A stretch of DNA of 64,000 bases from Mobula hypostoma (GCF_963921235.1 NC_086108.1:59522001-59586000); one strand, 5' to 3'; positions 1,792-63,814 are shown, counted from the first letter of the stretch. Notes: generated by a model from the sequence alone, not told the origin. Numbers and translations: made by a program.

Positions 1792-4500
1792 TCAGGCAGG
1801 GTATTCCACGCACCCAACCACTCTCTGAGTAAAAAACCTTCCTCTAATATCCCCCTTGAACTTCCCACCCCTTACCTTAAAGCCATGTCCTCTTGTATTG
1901 AGCAGTGGTGCCCTGGGGAAGAGGTGCTGGCTATCCACTCTATCTATTCCTCTTATTATCTTGTACACCTCTATCATGTCTCCTCTCATCCTCCTTCTCT
2001 CCAAAGAGTAAAGCCCTAGCTCCCTTAATCTCTGATCATAATGCATACTTTCTAAACCAGGCAGCATCCTGGTAAATTTCCTCTGTACCTTTTCCAATGC
2101 TTCCACATCCTTCCTATAGTGAGGTGACCAGAACTGGACACAGCACTCCAAGTGTGGCCTAACCAGAGTTTTATAGAGCTGCATCATTACATCGCGACTC
2201 TTAAACTCTATCCCTTGACTTATGAAAGCTAACACCCCATAAGCTTTCTTAACTACCCTATCTACCTGTGAGGCAGCTTTCAGGGATCTGTGGACATGTA
2301 ACCCAGACCCCTCTGCTCCTCCACACTACCAAGTATCCTGCCATTTACTTTGTACTCTGCCTTGGAGTTTGTCCTTCCAAAGTGTACCACCTCACACTTC
2401 TCCGGGTTGAACTCCATCTGCCACTTCTCAGCCAACTTCTGCATCCTATCAATGTCTCTCTACAATCCTTGACAACCCTCTACAACACCACCAAGCTGTG
2501 TGTCGTCTGCAAACTTGCCAACCCACCCTTCTACCCCAACATCCAGGTCGTCAATAAAAATCACGAAAAGTAGAGGTCCCAGAACAGATCCTTGCGGGAC
2601 ACCACTAGTCACAATCCTCCAATCGGAATGTACTCCCTCTACCACCACCCTCTGCCTGCTGCAGGCAAGCCAATTCTGAATCCACCTGGCCAAACTTCCC
2701 TGGATTCCATGCCTTCTAACTTTCTGAATAAGCCTACCGTGTGGAACCTTGGCAAATGCCTTACTAAAATCCATATAGATCACATCCACTGCACTACCCT
2801 CATCTATATGCCTGGTCACCTCCTCAAAGAACTCTATCAGGCTTGTTAGACACGATCTGCCCTTCACAAAGCCAAGCTGACTGTCCCTGATCAGACCATG
2901 ATTCTCTAAATGCCTATAGATCCTATCTCTAAGAATCTTTTCCAACAGCTTTCCCACCACAGACGTTAGGCTAACTGGTCTATAATTACCCAGACTATCC
3001 CTACTACCTTTTTTGAACAAGGGGACAACATTCGCCTCCCTCCAATCCTCCGGTACCATTCCCATGGACAACGAGGACATAAAGATCCTAGCCAGAAATT
3101 CAGCAATCTCTTCTCTTGCCTCATGGAGCAGTCTGGGGAATATTCCGTCAGGCCCCGGGGACTTATCTGTCCTAATGTATTTTAACAACTCCAACACCTC
3201 CTCTCCCTTAGTATCAACATGCTCCAGAACATCAACCTCACTCATATTATCCTCACCATCATCAAGTTCCCTCTCATTGGTGAATACCGAAGAGAAGTAT
3301 TCATTGAGGACTTCGCTCACTTCCACAGCCTCCAGGCACATCTTCCCACCTTTATCTCTAATCAGTCCTACCTTCACTCCCGTCATCCTTTTTTTCTTCA
3401 CATAATTGAAGAATGCCTTGGGGTTTTCCTTTACCTTACTAACCAAGGCCTTCTCATGCCCCCTTCTTGCTCTTCTCAGCCCCTTCTTTAGCTCCTTTCT
3501 TGCTTCCCTATATTCCTCAATAGACCCATCTGATCCTTGCTCCTAAACCTCATGTATGCTGCCTTCTTCCACCTGACTAGATCTTCCACCTCACTTGTCA
3601 CCCATGGATCCTTCACCCTACCATTCATTATCTTCCTCACCGGGACAAATTTATCCCTAGCATCCTGCAAGAGATCGCTAAACATCGACCACATGTCCAT
3701 AGTACATTTCCCTGCAAAAACATCATCCCAGTTCACACCCGCAAGTTCTAGCCTTATAGCCTCATAATTTGCCTCTCCCCAATTAAAAATTTTCTTGTCA
3801 TCTCTGATTCTATCCTTTTCCATGATAATGCTAAAGGCCAGGGAGCGGAGGTCACTGTCCCCCAGATGCTCACCCACTGAGAGATCTGTGACCTGACCCA
3901 GTTCATTACCTAGTAAAAGATCTAGTATGGCATTCCCCCTGGTCAGCCTGTCCACATACTGTGACTGGAATCCGTCCTGGACACACTTAAGAAACTCTGC
4001 CCCATCTAAACCCTTGGAACTAATCAGGTGCCAATCAATATTAGGGAAGTTAAAGTCACCCATGATAACAACCCTGTTATTTTTGCACCTTTCCAAAACC
4101 TGCCTCCCAATCTGCTCCTCCGTATCTCTGCTGCTACCAGGGGACCTATAGAATACCCCCAGTAGAGTAACTGCTCCCTTCCTGTTCCTGACTTCCACCC
4201 ATATTGACTCAAAAGAGGATCCTGCTACATTACCCACCCTTTCTATAGCTGTAATAGTATCCCTGACCAGTAATGCCACCCCTCCTCCCCTTTTTCCACC
4301 CTCTCTATCCCTTTTAAAGCACTGAAATCCAGCAATATTGAGAATCCATTCCTGCCCTGGTGCCAGCCTAGTCTCTGTAATGGCCAGTACATCATAATTC
4401 CATGTATGTATCCAAGCTCTCAGCTCATCACCTTTGTTCCTGATGCTTTTGCATTGAGGTACACACGTTTCAGCCCTTCTACCTTACTGTCTTTACCCCG
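1792..4500 (-). pseudogene. CR1 ORF2 (APE endonuclease plus reverse transcriptase), frameshifted
   Basis: ORF track 3488-4279 (MGDFNFPNIDW, HLGDSD), 2460-3446 ([34 protein letters not shown]) and 1792-2235 (YKTLVRPHLE), in different frames. Confidence 0.93.
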
Positions 4501-20106: not shown

Positions 20107-22195
20107 TATACTTTATACTTTATACTTTATCGTCGCCAAGCAATTGATACTAGAGCATACAATCATCACAGCGATATTTGATTCTGCTCTTCGTGCTCCC
20201 TGGAGCACAAATAGATAGTAAATATTAAAAATTGAAATTATAAATCATAAATAGAAAATAGAAAAGGGAAAGTAAGGTAGTGCAAAAAAACCAAGAGGCA
20301 GGTCCAGATATTTGGAGGTTATGGCCCAGATCCGGGTCAGGATCCGTTCAGCAGTCTTATCACAGTTGGAAAGAAGCTGTTCCCAAATCTGGCCATACGA
20401 GTCTTCAAGCTCCTGAGCCTTCTCCCAGAGGGAAGAGGGATGAAAAGTGTGTTGGCTGGGTGGGTTGTGCCCTTGATCATCCTGGCAGCACTGCTCCGAC
20501 AGTGTGCGGTGTAAAGTGAGTCCAAGGATGGAAGATTGGTTTGTGTGATGTGCTGTGCTGTGTTCACGATATTCTGCAGCTTCTTCTGGTCTTGGACAGG
20601 ACAACTTCCACACCAGGTTGTGATGCACCCCAGAAAAATGCTTTCTACGGTGCATCTATAAAAATTAGTGAGGGTTTTAGGGGACAGGCCAAATTTCCTT
20701 AGCTTCCTCAGGAAGTAAAGGCGCTGGTGGGCCTTCTTGGCAGTGGAATCTGCTTGGTTGGACCAAGTCAGGTCATTTGTGAGATTGACCCCGAGGCACT
20801 TAAAGCTTTTGACCTGTTCCACTTGCGCACCACCAACGTAAATGGGGTCGTGCAGTCCGCTATTTCTTCTGAAGTCAACAACCAATTCCTTCGTCTTGCT
20901 GTTGTTGAGGGATAGGTTATTGTCTTTGCACCATGCCACCAGGTTCTTAATTTCCTCTCTGTACTCAAACTCATCATTACCCAAGATATGGCCTACAATT
21001 CTGGTGTCATCAGCAAACCTATATATTGAGTGCGATGGAAACTTGGCTACACAATCATGGGTGTACAGTGAACACAGCAGGGGGCTGAGTACACAGCCTT
21101 GTGGGGCACCGGTGCTCAGAGTGATTGTAGAAGAGAGTTTGTCCCCTATTTTTACAGCCTGGGTCCTGTCTGTGAGGAAGTTGAAGATCCAGCTGCAGAT
21201 CTGAGTGCTAAGGCCCAGGTTCCGGAGCTTAGAAATCAGTTTATCTGGAATGATGGTATTAAAGGCAGAGCTGTAGTTAATGAAAAGGAGACTTACATAT
21301 GTGTCTTTATTCTCTAGGTGTTCAAAGGAGGATTGTAGGGCTAGAGAGATGGCATCTGCCATTGACCTGTTGCTCTGGTAGGCAAATTGCAAAGCGTCGA
21401 GGTTGACCGGTAGGCTGTGGTTGATGTGTGCCATAACCAATCGCTCGAAGCGCTTCATAGCAATTGATGTCAGAGCCACAGGTCGATAGTCATTCAGGCA
21501 TGCCACCTTGTTCTTCTTCGGAACCAGGATTATCGTTGCCTTCTTAAAACACGAGGGGATCTTAGACTGAAGCAAGGAGCAGTTGAAGATGCCAGCAAAC
21601 ACTCCAGCTAGCTCGCTTGCACAGGCACAGAGAACCCGTCCCGGGACACCATCTGGGCCCATCACCTTCCTTGGATTTATCTTCAGGAAGGCCCTTCTAA
21701 CGTCCTCCTCGGTGACGATGAATCTCGATGCCACCAGGTCCAGTTCATCCGGAGGGAGTGGAATGCTCCTCTTCTGTTCGAATTTTGCGTAGAATATGTT
21801 AAGTTCAACAGGAAGAGAAGCACCACAGTTATTGATATTCCCAGCCTTTTCTTTGCGCCCAGTGATCTCATTTAGACCCTGCCATAGTCTACTGGCATCC
21901 CTCTGGTTAGCCTAGGCTTCCAACTTGGCTCGATATAGCCTTTTGGTGCCCTTAATGGCTTTCCAGAGTTCACGCCTGGATTCCATGTAGCGACTGGTTT
22001 CCCCGGACCTAAAAGCCACAGCTCTAGCCTTCAGAAGGGACTGGACCTCATAATTCATCCAAGACTTCCGGTTAGGGAATACCCGGATAGTCTCGCGAGA
22101 CATACAGTCCTCTGTGCATTTCCAGATAAAGTCCGTGACATCTGAGGCATACTCATCGAGGTTAGCTGCCAAGTCCTTGAATGCTAACCAGTGTC
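20107..22195 (-). mobile_element. Rex1/Babar-type LINE, 5'-truncated, relatively young
   Basis: 465-aa open RT region at 20337-21734 (GPDGVPG, DYRPVALTS, GAPQGCVLSP, YRFADDT). A stop and frameshift lie upstream (21912). The 3' tail is (taaagta)n at about 20107-20130. Confidence 0.95.
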
Positions 22196-40920: not shown

Positions 40921-43278
40921 GATCTCCTATTTGGGAACCAGACAGGTCAGGTGACAGAAGTATGTGTAGGCGAGCATTTTGGATCCAGTGACCATAATGT
41001 CATTAGTTTCAAGTTCATTATGGATAAGGATAGGTCTGGTCTTCGAGTTAAGGTTCTAAATTGGAGAAGGGCCAATTTTGAGGAAATGAGAAAGGATCTA
41101 GGAAGTGTGGATTAGGATAAGTTGTTTTCTGGCAAGGATGTGTTCAGTATGTGGAAGGCATTCAAAGGCAAAATTTTGAGAGTGCAGTGTTTGCATGTTC
41201 CTGCCAGGATTAAAGACAAAGTTAACAGGCATAGGGAACCTTGGTTTTCAAGGTATATTGGTGATCTGGTTAAGAAAAAAAGAGAGAGGTGTATAGCAGG
41301 TAGTGGCAACAAGGAACAAATGAGGTACTTGAAGAGAATAGAAAATGTAAGAAAATACTAAAGAAGGAAATCAGGAAGGCAAAAAGAAAATATGAGGTTG
41401 CTTTGGCAGATAATGTGAAGGTAAACCCGTAGGGTTTCTACAAGTATATTAAGAGTAAAAGGATAGTAAGTGACAAAGTTGGTCCCCTAGAAGATCAAAG
41501 TGGTTGTGTATGTGAGGAGCCTCACGAGATGGGGGAGATCTTAAACAATTTTTTTTGCATCAGTATTTACTCAGGAAACTGGCATAGTGTATATAGAAGG
41601 AAGGGAAACAAGCAGTAGTGTCATGGAACATATAGAGATTAAAGGGGAGGAGGTGCTTTCTGCCTTGCAGCAAATAAAGGTAGATAAATCCCCCAGGCCT
41701 GACATGATATTTCCTCGGACCTGGAGACAGACTAGTGTAGAGATTGCCCTGGTAGAAATATCTAAAATGTCCTTAGCCACGGGTGCGGTGCCAGAGGATT
41801 GGAGGGTAGCTCATGTTGTTCCATTGTTTAAAAAAGGCTTCAAAAAGTAAACCAGGTGATTACAGGCCGATGAGCCTGACATCAGTAGTAGGTGAATTAT
41901 TGGAAGGTGTTCTGAGAGATCGGATATACAATTATTTGGACAGCCAAGGGCTGATTAAGGATAGTCATCATGGCTTTGTGCGTGGTAGATTGTGTTTAAT
42001 GAATCTTGTAGAGTTTTTCGAGGAGGTTACCAAGAAAGTAGATGAAGGAAAGGCTGTGGATGTTGTCTACATGGACTTTAGTAAGGCCTTTAACAAGGTC
42101 CCACATAGAAGGTTAGTTCAGAAGGTTCAGACACTAGATATCCATGGAGAGGTTGTAAACTGGATTTGAAATTGGCTGTATGGGAGAAGACAGAGAGTGG
42201 TAGTGGATGATTGCTTCTCAGACTGGAGGCCTGTGACAAGTGGTGTGTCTTAAGGATCTGTGCTGGGACCATTGTTGTTTGTTGCCTATATCAATGATCT
42301 AGATAATAATGTGGTAAATTGGATTAGCAAGTTTGCTGATGACACTAAGATTGGAGGCGTTGTAGACAGCGAGGAAGGCTTTCAGAGCTTGCAAAGGGAT
42401 CTGGACCAAATTGAAAAATGGGCCAGAAAATGACAGATGGAATTTAATGCAGATGTGTGAGGTGTTGCATTTTGGAAGGACAAATCAAGGTAAGATATAC
42501 ACAGTAAATGGCAGGGCAGTGAGGAGTGCGGAGGAACAAAGAGATCTGGGAGCTCAGATACATAATTCCCTGAAAGTGGTGTCACAGGTAGACAGGGTTG
42601 TAAAGGCGGCTTTTGGCATCCTGGCATTCATAAATCAAAGTATTGATTATAGGAGTTGGGATGTTATGGGGAGGTTGTATAAGACATTGGTGAGGCCAAA
42701 TTTGGAATATTATTTACAGTTCTGGTCAACTAACTATAGGAAGGATATCAGTAAGATTGAAAGAGTGCAGAGAAGATTTGCTAGGATGTTGCCAGGTCTT
42801 CAGGAGTTGAGTTACAGGGACAGATTGAACAGGTTAGGACTTTATTCCTTGGAGCGTAGAAGAATGAGGGGAGATTTGATAGAGGTTTACAAAATTATGC
42901 GGGGTATAGACAGTGTTATGTACCCCGTAACTGGGTTGCCAAACTAGCAGAAATGGATCACTTGTTGGAATCTGGATTACTAGAAACTAATAAAGTTTTA
43001 TTAAAGAAATAAGTAACACAGTACTCTAATCGTAAGGATATAAATGCAACAGGTTAGCAATGATAAAACACACATGTACACAGAACTAGGGTAATAGGAA
43101 TCAACCAAGCTGTATCGCAGTCTAGGGGTAAAATGATCAGTCTCAAGTAACGCAGAGTTCAGTTCAGCTTAGTACTGTTCGCTGTAATGCCATTGGGGGG
43201 GAGGGAGAGGGAGGGAGGGAGAGAGAGGGAGAGGGAGAGGGAGAGGAGGAGAGAGAGAGAGAGGGGGAAGAGAGAGGG

Positions 43279-55155: not shown

Positions 55156-57051
55156 GTGTCATGTGATATTCCTGTCCATTTAACTATAATTAGTGGATTT
55201 TCCAACAGTGTTACCAGCATGAAAAATTATTTTACTTTAGGACTGAGCATTCGTGCCTGGATTCTCCTGGAGTTGTTGAGGGGTAGTTATTAACAATAGT
55301 TTTCAGAAGGAATTATATTCAAAAATGGTTACAAAAGGCTATCTAGTTCATTAGATTAATTGGACTTAATTTCATATTTTGTAGAGTGCAGGTGCAATTT
55401 TGGGATTTGATGTGGCAAGTTATGCCCTAAAACAGGAAGCGTAATTTTATACTTTTAATGTAAACTCCATTCAAGCTGTAAAAGAATTGTTAGTGGAAGT
55501 AAATCCCATAAAAAGAAACATATTTAAAACACACACACACACACACACAAGCCAGTGGGAAGTGCTGATTTCTATGGCCATATTTCCAAAATTTGTTTCT
55601 GAAGCAGTAGGCTCCGCTGGAAAGCAAATTCAGGAATTCAGTGTTATCATGTTTGAACAAAACACCTCAGTAAGAGCCATTTACTGCAAAGCCAAGCTCC
55701 TTTTGCATTACTTTTTATGTATGATATCTGTTAACACACAGCAAGGAATGAAACAAAGACTTCTTTAGTCCAGGATTCACACAAAGTATGACATGATTTC
55801 ACACAAAAAAGGCAAGAATATTAATCAAAAGAAGGCACTAGTACTGAAAATAATTATTTTCAAGGAGATTACTGCATAAATTACAATTGGTCATGTTTAC
55901 TACAATTAAGTTAAATTGGCCATTTTCATGAAACCTTGCTAAATCAACACCTGTAAGACTGCAGGAAGCGTGACTATTTATCATGACATCCAGTCTAACA
56001 CAATGATCTCCCCAATAACCGCACTAATCTAAAACTTTGAATTTTTTGAGGAGGAATAAAGCACGGTTGACAAGAGTGCAGCTTTTCCCGCAGCCTATGT
56101 GGGTTTGTAGTAAAGCAGGCTTCTCAAAGAAGGGAAAAGCAATCTGATCCAAAGTATGTGATAAATTGAACAAAAATTAACTTAGTTGTGGTTACTTTCA
56201 AAAGCATTCAGAAAGCAAAATCTTTGTTGTCCAGTGTAATCAGAAGAAAACCATGGGAGCCGGAAGATGTGTGTCTATTTTGTTTTACTTTTGTGAGACA
56301 CGCACTTACTGTGTGATGTGGTGGCATAATAATGCACACCATTTACATACTATTAAATATAACCATTAATGCATTATGTCAGCAACTAAGAATGCTTAAT
56401 CAAACAATATATTTACAATATTCCTCAAATATTACTGAAATATTAAATACACAATACACCTCCCTGCTTAGCTATAAACTCCAACTCAATATCGAATACA
56501 TCTCAAATATATATACAGTATCCTATATAATACAACCATTATATAGACATCCACAACATTATAAATGTAAAATTGTCCATTCGGTCCTAAAGATTTAATT
56601 GCTGTGGAGAATTCCTTATTCTTGTAGGATAATCCTCTCCTGACAAGGGGGAGTCATTCTGATTGCCAGGTGAGACATGGCTGTGAAACAATCTCAGGTT
56701 CTGGGTCCTCCTCTGTAATAGGTTTCGGAGTTGACTCTGAGGTTGCAGGAAGTGGTTCTGATGGCTCAGGACACCGTTCTCCTCTAACAGTTGACTCAGC
56801 TTTCCTCAAATGATCAGTGTCTCTTCTTCAGATGACATCAAACACAATCTCCACTGTGTAGGAGAATGGTCCAGTTCTGTCTTTAATATTTCCGAGGGGA
56901 CTTCCGGTAGCGCTCATGGAGTGAAGTCGCGTTCTTGACTCGCTCCATTACCTCTGAGTTTTTTTTCTCTATGGTCAGCTATACTTTAATTAACCATTAA
57001 GGCATCAACTCTTACAATACTTTGAATTAAACTGAATTCTCCGACAACTGG

Positions 57052-57951
57052 ATGGAACTTAGATCTGCTATGTCTAAGAACGAGAAAGACGGCAAGGATG
57101 GTAAACCTCCGGTTAAACCGAAAGCTACGGATCTCCCTCCGACTGAATCACCGGTGACTTTGAAAGCGATATCGGAGTTAATTCAGAGGGAAATTTCAAC
57201 CTCTGTTAGGGAGATGATTCGTACGGAAATTGCAGGCTTTGTTAAAGACCTGATTCATACGGAAATCTCAACTAATTTCCAGAAAATTGCCGATTTAATT
57301 GATAAGATGCAAACATGTATTGCGGAACATCAGTCGGCTATATCTGATCTTCAAAAATTCGCGCAACAAAGTGAGCTTAAGATGGGGAAAATCGAAGAAA
57401 CAATTAATGTAATGAAGAAGAAACTTGACTTTTTGACTTTTAAAAACTCTGACTTGGAATCTAGAATGCGACGGCAGAATCTACGAATGATTGGCGTGAG
57501 GGAAGCCGTTGAAGCTAACAACCCCATGAAATATTTCTCCCAACTTTTAAAAGATGCATTCCCTACTGTATTTCCTGACCAACCACCGCTACTGGATCGT
57601 GTTCACAGAATCCCATCATACTCGTCTAGGTCAGATAGACCTAGGCATGTTATCTTACGTTTTCATTACTTTCAAGACAAGGAGAGACTGTTTCGATTTG
57701 CTCGATCTAAAGGTTTCATTGATTTTTCGGATCTTAAGTTCCGATTCGTGGAAGATTTCAGTAAACCAATCTGGGACCAACGGGTCCGTTACAGATCCGT
57801 GATGTCGGAATTCTATAAGAGGGATTTAAGACCAGCGCTGCTGTACCCTGCACGTCTAAGGATTCGCATGTCAGATGGAGCCCTTCGTTTTTTTGATTCT
57901 CCATCGGATGCCCAGAGTTATCTGGATCAACTTTCATCTCCAACATCTTAA
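57052..57951 (+). CDS. L1 ORF1p (coiled coil plus RRM/CTD RNA-binding protein)
   Basis: 299 aa with a heptad-rich region followed by RRQNLRMIGVRE, RVHR, EDFS and LLYPARL motifs. Alternative ATG at 57070. Confidence 0.93.
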   Translation: MELRSAMSKNEKDGKDGKPPVKPKATDLPPTESPVTLKAISELIQREISTSVREMIRTEIAGFVKDLIHTEISTNFQKIADLIDKMQTCIAEHQSAISDLQKFAQQSELKMGKIEETINVMKKKLDFLTFKNSDLESRMRRQNLRMIGVREAVEANNPMKYFSQLLKDAFPTVFPDQPPLLDRVHRIPSYSSRSDRPRHVILRFHYFQDKERLFRFARSKGFIDFSDLKFRFVEDFSKPIWDQRVRYRSVMSEFYKRDLRPALLYPARLRIRMSDGALRFFDSPSDAQSYLDQLSSPTS

Positions 57952-58673
57952 TTGCTTTCTTTTTAATTTTCTCCGTCGATCGGAGGCTGTGAATTGGTTG
58001 GTTTTAACTTTTCTGTGCCCTATTTGGGCAGAAAAGTTTACTTTCGATTTCTTAATATGGCTACTAAACTTTCTTTTTAACTGCGTCATTTCTTTCTTTT
58101 CCCAGGGGATTCTGGGTGGTTACTTCCCTTTTGTCATCTTACGTATTTCCTGTGCGGCCTTAAATTTTGTAGTTTTTGTTTAAATTTTATTCTGTTTTGC
58201 TTTTTATAATCACTTTATGTTAATAATCCTATTTTTTTTGTTGCTGTGTCTATTCATGAGTTTGAGGTTTATTGTGGTTTTTTTTTAATATATATTTTCC
58301 GGCTTTTGTTCTGTTCTGTGTGTATTCTAATTGAGCTAACTTTTTTTTACTTATTTTTTTACTGTTTTACAATTAGCTGATCCTTTTCATATTTATACCT
58401 TTTTTTTAGGGAGCGTATACCGGAAGTCATGGGGGTAGTTTTAGCGCTTGCTTCTTTCTGGCGGGTCTGCTTTAGATTTTGCCTTGGGATCTTGGGTTGG
58501 GGGGTGGCGGGAGGGGCTTCACGTTTTAGTTTGTTTTTCTTTGGGCTATATACATTATTGAAGTACTGGTTGCGTCCTTTTCCCCGGTATCTTTTGTATG
58601 TTCTGTTTCCTCTCCGGGTTTGTGGGTCGCGCCTATTGTCAATCCTCCTTGTTGTGGGTTGACTTTAGGATTT

Positions 58674-61600
58674 ATGGAGTCTATTATTAATTTTGTCTCC
58701 TGGAATACTAATGGTCTTAATCATCCTATTAAAAGAAAAAAAGTTTTTAAAGTGTTCCGGAGACTTAAAGCACAAATTTTATTTTTACAAGAGACCCATG
58801 TACGGAGGGGGGACAGACTACGTTTTTTCAAATTCTGGAAGGGCCAACAATTTCATTCGAACTCCAATGCTAAGATTCGAGGCGTCTCTATTTTTATAGA
58901 TTCCTCAGTTACTTTTATACAACAGGATATTATCTCTGATCCGAATGGTAGATTTTTATTGGTTAGTGGTTTACTATTTAATAAAAAAGTAGTTTTGGTT
59001 AATGTTTATGCTCCTAATATGGATTGTCCGGAATTTTATAAATCATTGTTTGATCAGTTTCCGAATTTGAACGAGTTTTCATTGATTTGGGGCGGAGATC
59101 TTAATACCTGTTTATCTCCAGCTTTGGACCGTTCGGCTCCTTTACGGACTTTACCTAATAAATCTGCAAATTTGATTAATTTTTTCCTTTCTGATTCTGG
59201 GTCGACGGATATTTGGCGTTTTCTGCATCCTCAGGAAAAAGATTTTTCCTTTTTTTCACATGTTCATCATTCCTATTCAAGAATTGATTATTTTTTTATT
59301 GATTCTCGTCTCATTCCTTCAGTGATTAAATGTGATTATGATTCTATAACCATTTCGGATCATGCTCCACTTAAGCTTTCTATTAAAATTATGGCCAATA
59401 TACCAAACAATAGACAATGGCGTTTTAATTCGCTGTTGCTTCAGGACTCGGACTTTGTTAATTTTATGAATGAACAGATTGAGCTTTTTTTTATAATTAA
59501 CCATACAGAAGATATTTCGGTTAACACTCTTTGGGACACTTTTAAAGCCTATATTCGGGGTCAGATTATTTCGTATTCCGTTGCTTTGAGGAAGAAACAG
59601 AAGCAGGAGGAGATGGCAATTGTGGACAAGATTAAAGAAATTGATAAGAAATATGTTATGGCTCCTTCTGAGGAGTTATACAAACAAAGAACTGAACTCC
59701 AAATGGAACACAGTTTACTACTCTCGTCCTCGATTGTAAACCAATTAAAGAAAACAAGAAGTGATTTTTATGTTCACAGTGATAAAATTGGCAAGTTGCT
59801 GGCTAATCAATTGAAATCTAATTATGTTAAATCTCAAATCAATCAGATTTATAACCAAAATGATCGATTGATATTGGATCATGTGGGGATTAATCAAACC
59901 TTTTGTGATTTTTATTCTTCTTTATATCAATCGGAGTCTCCTCGAGATTCTAAATATATGAATGATTTTTTAGATAAGTTAGACTTTCCTCAGATTTCAC
60001 AGGATATGTCTTCTTTATTAGATACTTCCATTACAATGGATGAGATTAAGAATGTTATTTTTTCTATGAATCTGGGGAAAGCTCCTGGCCCTGATGGGTT
60101 TACCGTTGAATTTTATAAATGTTTTGCTTCTTTATTGATTCCTTGGCTCTATAAGGTTTTTGAGGCTTCTTTGAAACTTGGTAAACTTCCGGAATCTTTT
60201 AATAGAGCATCAATTTCTTTAATACTAAAGAAGGATAAAGACCCTGCTCAATGTGCATCTTATAGACCAATATCTTTATTAAATGTTGATTCTAAAGTTT
60301 TTTCTAAGTTATTAGCAAATAGACTAGAAAAAGTACTTCCTTCTATTATTTCGGAAGACCAAACGGGTTTTATTAAAGGTCGTTACTCTTTTTATAATAT
60401 TCGTACATTGTTAAATATCGTTTATACTCCCTCACAAAATGTTCCTGAGTGTGTTATTTCTTTAGATGCCGAGAAAGCTTTTGATAGAGTAGAATGGCCT
60501 TATTTATTTAAGGTGCTTGAAATGTTTAATTTTAGCCTGAAATTTATATCCTGGATTAAACTGTTATATCACTCCCCTGTAGCCTCGGTTCGTACTAACT
60601 CTTTAAACTCACCTTTTTTTCCTCTCTTTCGTGGTACTCGACAAGGCTGTCCTCTTAGTCCCCTATTATTTGATATTGCATTAGAACCTCTTGCAATTGC
60701 TATTCGAGAATCTTCAAATATTACTGGGATAACTCGGGGATTAAAGTCCCATAAATTATCACTCTATGCTGATGATTTACTTTTATATATTTCTAATCCT
60801 GAGAGATCTATTCCTGCTGTTTTAGAGTTATTAGCACAATTTGGTCTTTTCTCAGGTTATAAATTAAATCTTAGTAAGAGTGAACTTTTTCCGATTAATA
60901 AACATCTTCCCTTATATTATAAATTTCCATTTAAATTGATTAATAATTACCTTTCATATCTTGGGATTAAAATTACTTGTAAACATAAAGATTTATTTAA
61001 GACTAACTTTTTACCATTAATAGACCATATTACTCAACTTTCATCTAAATGGTTTCCTTTATATTTAACTTTGATTGGTCGTATTAATGCAGTTAAGATG
61101 TTTTTTTTGCCAAAATTTTTATATGTGTTTCAGGCATTACCAATTTTCGTTCCTAAATCTTTTTTTGATAAAGTCGACTCTAAAATTTCTTCATTTATTT
61201 GGCAGAATAAGAATCCGAGACTGGGTAAAATACATTTACAGAAAGCTAAGAGAGATGGAGGTTTAGCATTACCTAACTTTAGATTTTATTATTGGGCTAT
61301 TAATATTCGACATATGAAATTTTGGTTACTTGACCGGGATATACTATCTATTCCTAAATGGGTAGCATTGGAATTACAATCTGTTCAGGGTTATACACTT
61401 GGTTCTATTTTAGGTTCATCTCTTCCTTTTGATTCGAAACGCCTTAAGCAGGTCTCTAACCCGATCGTTAAATATGCTTTGCGTATTTGGTTTCAATTCA
61501 GAAAATTTTTTGATCTTAATCAATTCGGGTTAGCGATTCCTATTTTAGGTAACATATTTTTTCCTCCCTCTTTTACGGATCGCGCTTTTCAAACTTGGAA

Positions 61601-62450
61601 GACTAAGGGTATTTTACGGTTTTTGGATTTATTTTTAGATGGTTCCCTTATGTCTTTTGAACAATTATCTAATAAATATAACCTATCAAGAATACATTTT
61701 TTTAGATATTTACAAGTTAGAAATTTTCTAAGTACTATACTTCCTTCCTTTCCAATGCTTCCTCCTATATATATTTTAGATTCGATAATTAACCTTAATC
61801 CATGTCAGAAAGGTGCATCGGCTATGATTTATAATATTATTATGAAACTCAGGAAAGCTCCATTTGATAAGATTAGGGTAGATTGGGAACAGGAATTGGG
61901 GCTTACCATTTCTGTGGATGATTGGGGGCAGATTTTACAATTAGTTAATACTTCCTCTATTTGTGCTAAACATTCCCTAATTCAATTTAAAGTGGTGCAT
62001 AGAGCACATATGTCCAAAGATAAGTTAGCGCGTTTTTACTCGCATATTAATCCTTTCTGTGATAGATGTTCGGGGCAGATAGCCTCTTTAACTCATATGT
62101 TTTGGTCTTGCCCTACTTTGGAAACTTTTTGGAGAGATATTTTCAATATTATTTCTAAGGTATTAAATATAGATATCTCTCCTCACCCTATTACTGCTAT
62201 CTTTGGACTACCTAAAATTTCTAGTAATCTTTCCCCTTCAGCCCGTAGAATGATTGCATTTCTTACTTTAATGGCGAAAAGATGTATTTTACAACATTGG
62301 AAAGAGCTTAATGCTCCAACTACCTTTTTTTGGTTTTCTCAGACGATTTTATGTTTGAATCTGGAGAAAATTAGAAGTAACCTTTATGATTCTTCATTTA
62401 AATTTGAACAGATTTGGGGACCTTTTATTCGATATTTTCATTTAATGTAA
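58674..62450 (+). CDS. L1 ORF2p (APE endonuclease, reverse transcriptase, CCHC)
   Basis: 1258 aa from ATG 58674, with SWNTNGL, LQETH, GGDLN, SRIDY, SDH (APE); KAPGPDG, QGCPLSP, YADD (RT); and CDRC-x8-H-x4-C. Confidence 0.96.
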   Translation: MESIINFVSWNTNGLNHPIKRKKVFKVFRRLKAQILFLQETHVRRGDRLRFFKFWKGQQFHSNSNAKIRGVSIFIDSSVTFIQQDIISDPNGRFLLVSGLLFNKKVVLVNVYAPNMDCPEFYKSLFDQFPNLNEFSLIWGGDLNTCLSPALDRSAPLRTLPNKSANLINFFLSDSGSTDIWRFLHPQEKDFSFFSHVHHSYSRIDYFFIDSRLIPSVIKCDYDSITISDHAPLKLSIKIMANIPNNRQWRFNSLLLQDSDFVNFMNEQIELFFIINHTEDISVNTLWDTFKAYIRGQIISYSVALRKKQKQEEMAIVDKIKEIDKKYVMAPSEELYKQRTELQMEHSLLLSSSIVNQLKKTRSDFYVHSDKIGKLLANQLKSNYVKSQINQIYNQNDRLILDHVGINQTFCDFYSSLYQSESPRDSKYMNDFLDKLDFPQISQDMSSLLDTSITMDEIKNVIFSMNLGKAPGPDGFTVEFYKCFASLLIPWLYKVFEASLKLGKLPESFNRASISLILKKDKDPAQCASYRPISLLNVDSKVFSKLLANRLEKVLPSIISEDQTGFIKGRYSFYNIRTLLNIVYTPSQNVPECVISLDAEKAFDRVEWPYLFKVLEMFNFSLKFISWIKLLYHSPVASVRTNSLNSPFFPLFRGTRQGCPLSPLLFDIALEPLAIAIRESSNITGITRGLKSHKLSLYADDLLLYISNPERSIPAVLELLAQFGLFSGYKLNLSKSELFPINKHLPLYYKFPFKLINNYLSYLGIKITCKHKDLFKTNFLPLIDHITQLSSKWFPLYLTLIGRINAVKMFFLPKFLYVFQALPIFVPKSFFDKVDSKISSFIWQNKNPRLGKIHLQKAKRDGGLALPNFRFYYWAINIRHMKFWLLDRDILSIPKWVALELQSVQGYTLGSILGSSLPFDSKRLKQVSNPIVKYALRIWFQFRKFFDLNQFGLAIPILGNIFFPPSFTDRAFQTWKTKGILRFLDLFLDGSLMSFEQLSNKYNLSRIHFFRYLQVRNFLSTILPSFPMLPPIYILDSIINLNPCQKGASAMIYNIIMKLRKAPFDKIRVDWEQELGLTISVDDWGQILQLVNTSSICAKHSLIQFKVVHRAHMSKDKLARFYSHINPFCDRCSGQIASLTHMFWSCPTLETFWRDIFNIISKVLNIDISPHPITAIFGLPKISSNLSPSARRMIAFLTLMAKRCILQHWKELNAPTTFFWFSQTILCLNLEKIRSNLYDSSFKFEQIWGPFIRYFHLM

Positions 62451-62743
62451 TATTTACCCTTCTTGTTTTTTTTCACTGTTTTAATGGAGGTCGGGATTGA
62501 GGACGTGATTTTAAGTTTAACTCTGTTTGGTTTCAAGTTAGCCCATTGCTTTGCTTTGCTTTTAGTTAGTTGCACGGTGGGTTTTTTTTGGGGGTTTTTT
62601 TTTTCTTTTTTTCCATTGATATATATAAAATCTAGTATACTATTATGTTATCTTGGTTTCTTATGCTTAAATTACGTTGTTTGTAGTATTTTCTTTTTGG
62701 TATTGTTACCTTTTGGAATTTTATTATACTTTAACATTGTATT

Positions 62744-62784
<41 letters not shown>

Positions 62785-63814
62785 TTCCAAGTACCCAGTT
62801 TTGGTCACCACTGTAATCCCTCACCAGGACTGCTTGACCTGGAGAGAAACATTGAGCCTCCCTGTTTGAGGAACCCTCAAGTTGGCTTAGCTCTTAGGCC
62901 TTCATACTCCTTCTGAGACTGGGTTTGAGCAGATCCGAGCAAAAGGCCCAAAGGATAACCCAGGAGCAGCATAATCGGTGAGTTGTTGGTTATGGAGCGT
63001 GCTGCATTGCAATACACAATGAAGAAATAAGTGAGCTTCTGATTCAGTGTCAGTGTAGTGTGTTCTGCTGACATTGCTGGCAGTGCATTCTTTAAAATCT
63101 GGACAAACTTTTCCACCAAACCATTTGTAGCTGGGTGGTATGGTATACAGTAGATGTAATATGTTGTTTTCCATTCATTTTCAGAAATGACTGAAACTGT
63201 TCCACAACAAGCTGTGGTCCATTGTCACCGACTAAGCGTTCTGGAACACCAGTCCCTGAGAAGAGTCTTCTTAACATATCAACAGTGTACAAGACTGTAG
63301 AGGAGATTTTTGGGAACTCTTCTGGCCACTTTGGAGTTGCATCTGCCACTACTAAGAAATTTATGCTCATGAATGGTCTGGCAAAATCCACACGAATCCT
63401 CTGCCAGGGCAATACGTCATTCTCAGGGAATGAGTGGCTCTGCTCTTGGCATCTTCTGGATGTGTTGGCATACTGAACAGTGCATGGCATGTTGCTCAAT
63501 CTACTGATGTGTTCCAGGGCACCAGACATAGCTTTGAGCCAACACTTTCATTTTGATCATGCATAGATAATTGATATATATCTGCTCCAACACTTTAGCT
63601 ATCAGCTTGGATCCCCACACTCAGTCTGCACATTCCAGCCATTTTGAGTTGCTATGTAGATATGAGACTGTGTGTGGTCTTTTCTGGTTTCCCTCTTCCA
63701 TAATAGGGAGACTTTTGATTTGCATTAGGGAGAATATGTTACGAGGAGTGTCCTTTTTTGTAAATTTTTCAGGTATTTCATTTTCTAAGGGCAAACAGGA
63801 CAATCCATTAGCAT

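Follow-up and report, generated by a model that had tools for sequence, protein, structure and literature searches.

Among described elements, non-mammalian L1s with a long spacer between the ORFs, for example those of zebrafish clade 1 (such as L1-7B and L1-7C), come closest to the one analysed here. As in the element of the window (the whole stretch of 64,000 nucleotides that was analysed), a short 5′ UTR with a conserved start precedes an ORF1 carrying PF02994, followed by a long T-rich intergenic region (IGR) and an ORF2 with endonuclease (EN) and reverse transcriptase (RT), and the insertion has a poly(A) tail and a target-site duplication (TSD) (PMC5381506; this and the other sources given by accession are represented here by part of their text). 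Boissinot and Sookdeo (2016) reported that the clade 1 L1s of zebrafish and lizard share the 5′ motif as their conserved start and that it is a transcription-factor site; they took the IGR as non-coding and without shared RNA structure, and proposed a dicistrovirus-like IRES (PMC5381506). Two problems are stated to be open: the way in which ORF2 of L1 is translated, and the persistence of long spacers although these lower retrotransposition in assays (PMC5381506, PMC4072516). In megabat L1, compared here by description only, retrotransposition is aided by AUGs in the spacer and by its 3′ third: removal of the AUGs lowered it 3.3-fold, deletion of the 3′ third 6.9-fold and shuffling 8.8-fold. 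Yang et al. (2014) anticipated small spacer ORFs aiding reinitiation, and the available part of their paper describes neither a single conserved ORF ending at ORF2 nor a pairing with the 5′ end (PMC4072516).

Three further systems share features with the locus. In SART1 (UAAUG), human L1 ORF2 and the calicivirus TURBS, the stop of an upstream ORF, which is ORF1 or a major gene, lies at or close to the AUG of the next ORF (PMC5972666, PMC5902531). In the ribosome shunt of CaMV and RTBV, a basal helix is formed by distant arms whose sequences need no conservation, translation starts just past the 3′ arm, and a short uORF ending 5–10 nt before the stem is needed (PMC5902531). Primate ORF0 and the mammalian antisense ORFs are extra short ORFs of L1, located antisense in the 5′ UTR or over ORF1 (PMC5203782).

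The window contains a young, intact fish-type L1 at 56894-62779 on the plus strand. It is bounded by a 9-nt TSD (56885-56893, with the same letters at 62780-62788). The sequence-only reading had placed the 5′ terminus at 56899, but the TSD and the loose ends of other copies, which begin at 56894 or 56896, move the start to 56894-56896. The 5′ UTR with the start of an internal promoter spans 56894-57051, and its first bases equal the published fish and lizard consensus (PMC5381506). ORF1 (57052-57951, 299 aa, possibly starting at a second ATG at 57070) has the RNA-binding domain of the L1 clade (PF02994, 38.5 bits, cutoff 22.4) and is followed by a T-rich inter-ORF region of 722 nt (57952-58673). 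ORF2 (58674-62450) is uninterrupted over 1258 aa and encodes an N-terminal AP endonuclease, a reverse transcriptase and a C-terminal zinc region (PF03372 and PF00078 above cutoff, PF13966 just below). Its protein shares 64% identity with P0159, which is encoded by one of the nearest families, and about 50% with fish L1 proteins. The 3′ UTR and poly(A) tail (62451-62779, A run from 62750) complete, together with the TSD, the attributes of the L1 clade. An Rfam search gave 5 matches (E 1.5–4.7), every one far below the gathering score. The insertion splits an LTR-retrotransposon remnant with an integrase-like ORF (63092-63529, minus strand, PF00665, E 2.5e-05, below cutoff); many contigs carry the empty site and run straight into the downstream flank.

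In the last third of the inter-ORF region, an ATG-initiated ORF of 77 codons, here called ORF-X, lies at 58429-58662 (+) in the +1 frame relative to ORF2, its stop 11 nt before the ORF2 ATG. It contains a G-rich tract (58486-58516) at a position common to families L004, L005 and L037, and it overlaps the region of the IRES predicted in PMC5381506, where the available text makes no mention of an upstream or short spacer ORF. Taken alone, the frame in the window is unremarkable (shuffle probability 0.76 for the frame, p 0.03 for an ATG-initiated ORF); the evidence for ORF-X is comparative.

Related elements were collected by a metagenome scan with an endonuclease alignment, in which 267 of 599 candidate stretches were confirmed and the best 80 loci of these used; a genome-contig search added 3 distant loci, and an alignment of ORF1 found nothing in viral contigs. 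Among the resulting 84 sequences, 72 had more than 400 nt upstream of the endonuclease (58 families), and 53 of these 72 carried an ORF of at least 50 aa ending near ORF2. Such an ORF was present in all 17 families first inspected. For statistics, a set of 33 families (the window included) was used, each represented by one locus that has ORF1, a gap of 390 nt or more and the whole start of the endonuclease; 20 of these families are at least 38% identical in the endonuclease. A stop-free frame at −190 to −50, an interval picked after inspection of the 17 families, was found in 33/33, where shuffles of the same stretches predict 10.8 (0/200000 simulations). The antisense strand (5 families, 5.7 expected) and the upstream spacer (7, 6.6 expected) gave background values. 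In sliding windows the frame was open in 31–33 of the 33 families from −230 to −30 and fell to background upstream of −310. Among the 26 loci from families left out of the set, mostly without ORF1, it was open in 16 and absent in 10. Permutation of the codons places the first ATG later in the open frame than it is observed (p 0.001), and 30/33 ORFs reach at least 50 aa (median 77). The open frame before ORF2 is thus very probably under selection.

By eye, the same layout was recognised among spacers in the supplement of PMC5381506, in five picked examples and not as a full count: zebrafish L1-7B (66 codons, ending 13 nt short of the end of the spacer), frog L1-11 (55 codons, open to the end), lizard L1_AC18 (46 codons) and elephant (87 codons), with pig doubtful (stop after 59 codons, beside an A-run). 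No description of a conserved sense ORF in an L1 spacer was found, as judged largely from abstract level, with subscription papers, Repbase reports and bioRxiv supplements outside the scope. Neither such an ORF nor a pairing of 5′ end and spacer is described in the available parts of PMC5381506, PMC4072516, PMC5203782, 10.1101/788562, PMC5972666, PMC5902531, PMC12802575 and PMC2241872. ORF-X differs from primate ORF0 and the antisense ORFs in being sense and located between ORF1 and ORF2, and from the upstream ORFs of SART1, human L1 and the caliciviruses in being a separate ORF of 50–130 codons, hundreds of bases downstream of ORF1.

The junction of ORF-X with ORF2 has the geometry of termination-reinitiation. 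In the 31 families with an in-frame ORF2 ATG, the ORF-X stop overlaps this ATG or lies 0–27 nt past it in 25, with junctions such as TAATG, TGATG and ATGA, and stands within −14 to +27 nt in 29; this clustering is partly built in, stops having been searched within −60 to +25 of the endonuclease start. ORF-X is in the −1 frame relative to ORF2 in 22 families, in the +1 frame in 10 and in the ORF2 frame in 1. A programmed frameshift from ORF-X into ORF2 was not supported: it would have to operate in both directions, a heptamer-like site was found in 2/33 families, and overlaps shrink to 0–4 nt. Unlike the calicivirus TURBS, the junction is not enriched for the UGGGA of motif 1, which was found in 10 of 33 families (10.4 expected) at scattered positions. 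ATGs upstream of ORF-X are not depleted (191 versus 166), which makes plain scanning from ORF1 unlikely.

The most likely explanation is a relay: after translating ORF-X, ribosomes would stop next to the AUG of ORF2 and resume translation at it, so that ORF-X would take the role that ORF1's own stop has in the short-spacer L1s of mammals. We consider it somewhat probable that ORF-X is translated and coupled to ORF2 by stop and restart. The effect of AUG removal in megabat L1 would fit a dependence of ORF2 on ORF-X translation and lends this coupling indirect support; an overlapping uORF such as ORF-X could equally repress ORF2 instead.

How ribosomes would reach ORF-X in the family of the window may be connected with a second feature of the spacer. 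The sequence-only reading had claimed an inverted copy of the L1 5′ end in the inter-ORF region, and this copy is there, in sequence and position. When the first 40 nt were reverse-complemented and aligned locally with the spacer, the match fell at 58411-58428 (+, score 11.5), here called the 3′ arm, opposite a 5′ arm at 56899-56915 (+). The last base of the 3′ arm is position −1 of the ORF-X AUG. As RNA, the two arms would pair over 17 bp: 11 Watson-Crick pairs and then, past a bulged A (58417), a G-U pair and 5 more. Dinucleotide shuffling reached this alignment score once in 2000 trials on the spacer and never in 500 on the element. CCGGAAGT occurs once on the plus strand of the window and its reverse complement three times, and the exact sequence of the 3′ arm gave 0 matches in viral contigs. 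Both arms contain an ETS-like core.

In a fold of 56894-58760, the pairs of the long-range helix have probabilities of 0.87–0.99, and the helix abuts a predicted local hairpin (56916-56948, +; pair probabilities 0.5–1.0; fold z −1.35, alone not significant) which opens with a two-codon uORF (56916-56924). The helix proposed in the sequence-only reading is therefore thermodynamically plausible. It was expected to bring the 5′ end close to ORF2; the predicted contact reaches the ORF-X AUG, 245 nt upstream of ORF2, and not ORF2 itself. With the cap-proximal bases paired to the spacer copy, ORF1 would be looped out and the 5′ end would lie beside the ORF-X AUG, making the spacer copy part of an entry site for ORF-X in this family. 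This fold would be one of two near-equal ones: the best fold without the helix, in which the 5′ end pairs within ORF1 instead, lies only 2.9 kcal/mol higher. The helix, 3–5 nt from the cap, could also block the loading of ribosomes. The arrangement resembles the shunt of CaMV and RTBV in its distant arms and in the start just past the 3′ arm, but the stem stands 3–5 nt from the 5′ end, the two-codon uORF lies inside the loop, and so does a whole gene. A shunt of the pararetrovirus type was not supported: the element has no ATG before 56899 and its first ATG, at 56916, is past the 5′ arm. A functional helix in the family of the window is possible, though on the doubtful side; the full combination of an ORF-X relay with restart at ORF2, the helix being part of the entry site in this family, is held tentatively, at slightly short of even. 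A pairing between 5′ end and spacer appears to be undescribed for L1, no description having been found in the literature as judged largely from listings and the starts of abstracts.

Among the alternatives, the one that survives best accepts ORF-X as real and regards the inverted match as an accident of this lineage or as a short motif copied neutrally in inverted orientation, with ribosomes entering ORF-X by other means, for example the IRES that has been proposed; we consider it unlikely, but a serious contender. An IRES next to ORF2 has been predicted in silico (PMC5381506), and the near-equal alternative fold fits an accidental match. So does the caveat that 39 of 291 40-nt windows of the element own some inverted match of equal alignment score. 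When the 9-nt ETS-like core was fixed and the flanks were shuffled, the observed energy was reached in 188/5000 and 276/5000 cases (p 0.04–0.055), so that the pairing beyond the core is only modestly significant. Against an accident, when 98 segments of 25 nt were sampled along the element, the one at the 5′ end gave the strongest duplex (−30.8 kcal/mol, runner-up −27.5), and this duplex ends exactly at the ORF-X AUG.

Related families also supply evidence for an accident. Pairing was tested in 15 families besides that of the window, which had a spacer and a recognisable 5′ end (picked by eye). The sequence-only reading had proposed such an alignment, and over the whole spacer the pairing was absent in 13 of the 15: the own 5′ end paired with the own spacer at p < 0.05 in L008 and L027 (60 shuffles). 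Restricted to −450 to −150, 1/15 was significant (Fisher p 0.33, swap permutation p 0.46), and no pairing was found in L037, the nearest relative with a 5′ end. Because of these null results, the helix is not a general feature of fish L1. In the window's own lineage, none of the 40 variants listed (168 more exist) falls in either arm, and invariant pairs are uninformative on structure.

Some observations in other families nevertheless speak against an accident. L008 has a comparable duplex between its own 5′ end and its own spacer (z −3.8). When the search was anchored at the ORF-X ATG of these 15 families, own 5′ ends paired better than swapped 5′ ends (p 0.010 for −45 to +25, p 0.036 for −30 to +5), and the rank within the spacer gave Fisher p 0.003 and 0.08; against shuffles, Fisher p was 0.17, with 1/15 families below 0.05. 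The anchored swap test came after two others, was post hoc and used related families; its signal is carried by L005, L008 and L009, and it counts as a weak lead only. In contigs of a second organism (80% likeness), the bin 58408-58474 has a coverage of 69452 versus 1380 and 7353 in its neighbours; summed depth is a weak measure, and this coverage island may at most hint at support for the helix.

In a second alternative, the importance of ORF-X lies in its product, a hydrophobic microprotein that evolves fast, and ORF-X acts not, or not only, as a relay; the two roles are compatible, and we rate this one as rather unlikely. It is favoured by the substitutions in nine close pairs, which are distributed 6/5/16 over the three codon positions (16/27 at the third, p 0.005), with a synonymous to non-synonymous count of 13/10 in the ORF-X frame compared with 3/16 and 4/19 in the other frames. 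Indels within ORF-X among L023, L027 and L028 (12, 3 and 6 nt) preserve the frame, and the length is held near 77 codons. The window ORF-X shows, among the variants listed, four conservative changes and one silent change. On the other side, the pair L023/L027 has no bias in codon position (17/25/21), ORF-X frames are no closer to each other across families than other frames (77/528 pairs), and the hydrophobicity of the peptide is not frame-specific (10/33). No relatives were found in Pfam (4 peptides), the Atlas (best 0.83) or the protein database. The ORF-X peptide is not conserved between families. Two further measures were discarded, namely dN/dS from protein-guided local alignments of distant pairs, which is biased, and a contrast of substitution rate and upstream indels, which is dominated by L006 and L023/L027. 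A GCTTGCT stem-loop common to the window, L004, L005 and L037 by eye was also rejected (z 0.0 to +1.75, in differing reading frames).

As a third alternative, which we regard as improbable, the spacer copy would be a DNA element, a second ETS-type site that drives transcription from within the element in the sense or antisense direction. The complementarity would then result from inversion of the same factor site. Nine of the 17 pairs fall inside the ETS-like core, the remainder being modestly significant, and core-like words are present at the ORF-X AUG of L009 and L005. The sequence-only reading had offered a promoter as its other explanation. This fits the 5′ copy, the published transcription-factor site (PMC5381506). 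As for the spacer copy, four of the 84 sequences had a CCGGAAG[T/C] site upstream of the endonuclease: the window, L009 and L025 (same family), and L016, where it lies outside the element. The 8-mer gave 0 text matches in the available supplement of PMC5381506, in which spacing every 10 nt breaks matches. Most spacers are without the core, and the pairing site of L008 has no GGAA core either. Downstream motifs at a fixed distance, which follow real L1 starts, were not seen by eye after the inverted copy, and a sense start downstream of the spacer site would skip the ORF-X AUG.

The least credible alternative, a helix acting as a splicing bridge from a 25-nt first exon to an acceptor at 58409|58410, with ORF1 removed to give an mRNA of ORF-X and ORF2, has in its favour an acceptor-like site (58377-58409, +, with a branch-point-like sequence, pyrimidine tract and AG) ending 1 nt before the 3′ arm, a GT at 56921, 5 nt past the 5′ arm, whose joint would set the ATG at 56916 in the ORF-X frame, and GTRAG-like words near +20 to +27 in many fish L1 starts, but it is very improbable given a donor that fits the consensus poorly and is buried in the predicted 5′ hairpin, acceptor-like sites (simple rule) in only 6/33 families, the window family among them, a position bias of the ATG that indicates entry at an ATG, and no spliced joint among the contigs, which cannot show absence.

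Returning to ORF-X as a relay, a wider scenario can be drawn up, which as a whole is speculative and unlikely to hold in every part. Long-spacer L1 would ancestrally be tricistronic, with a sense ORF-X that is translated and hands ribosomes to ORF2 from fish to elephants. In at least some families the RNA would switch between two folds, an open one from which ORF1p is made and a closed one with the capped 5′ end paired next to the AUG of ORF-X, and would thereby set the ratio of ORF1p to ORF2p. In the short-spacer L1s of mammals, ORF-X would have been lost and ORF2 would be coupled to ORF1 without it. A working helix would constitute a switch from the cap to an internal AUG, of which no description for a LINE was found in the literature searched. 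ORF-X itself would be an alternative to the IRES that has been predicted, and its peptides may form a family of microproteins so far overlooked. With a conserved ORF that ends where ORF2 starts, the usual view of vertebrate L1 as a two-ORF element would have to change.

The LINE-1 in the window (56894-62779, forward strand) was inserted in a multi-copy LTR-retrotransposon remnant (about 56600-56884 and 62789-63620) with an integrase-like ORF on the reverse strand (63092-63529). The empty site was recovered in about 80 contigs per DNA run.

The 5' end (56894-56950) was compared with those of 15 other loci (alignment A4). The first motif varied among the fish L1 5' ends, being TTCCGG-, GC-box-, E-box- or CRE-like. 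Downstream, RGWCG near +30 and GCTC[C/T] near +46 were kept at fixed spacing, and a GTRAG word near +20-27 was likewise found. The RGWCG and GCTC[C/T] pair resembles a downstream core-promoter element.

Ahead of ORF1, two tiny upstream ORFs were located on the forward strand, of two codons (56916-56924) and nine codons (56971-57000). An ATG directly follows each of the two arms of the predicted helix (56899-56915 and 58411-58428). The coiled-coil region of ORF1 contains an imperfect tandem duplication of 36 nt (57174-57245), and 41 nt of this region are missing from one contig. Ahead of the poly(A) tail, 62400-62760 contains neither AATAAA nor ATTAAA.

Three decayed reverse transcriptase fragments of other LINE families, at 2466-3407 and 21066-21716 (both reverse strand) and 41831-42280 (forward strand), showed 23-27% identity to ORF2. 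A copy of the 9-nt motif, the ETS-like core of the 5' arm, lies just beyond the edge of one of them, at 22063. An L1-like ORF1 and endonuclease were also found in locus L001 (863-2938), whose contig is assigned to a bacterial MAG but is probably eukaryotic contamination.

In the inter-ORF region, the word GCTTGCT precedes a G-rich tract (58446-58516). The nearest fish families have this arrangement too, at L004 2788, L005 2009 and L037 2640. In the window it is read in a different frame from that in these three loci, and no folding support for it was obtained in any of the four. The inter-ORF regions of elephant, pig, frog, lizard and zebrafish, as presented in supplement 4 of PMC5381506, were inspected by eye. 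The elephant sequence has an ATG-initiated frame of 87 codons that continues up to the start of ORF2, and such a frame is likewise present in frog L1-11, lizard L1_AC18 and zebrafish L1-7B. Judged from these frames, ORF-X, the 77-codon ORF at 58429-58662, may extend to the long-spacer mammalian L1s.
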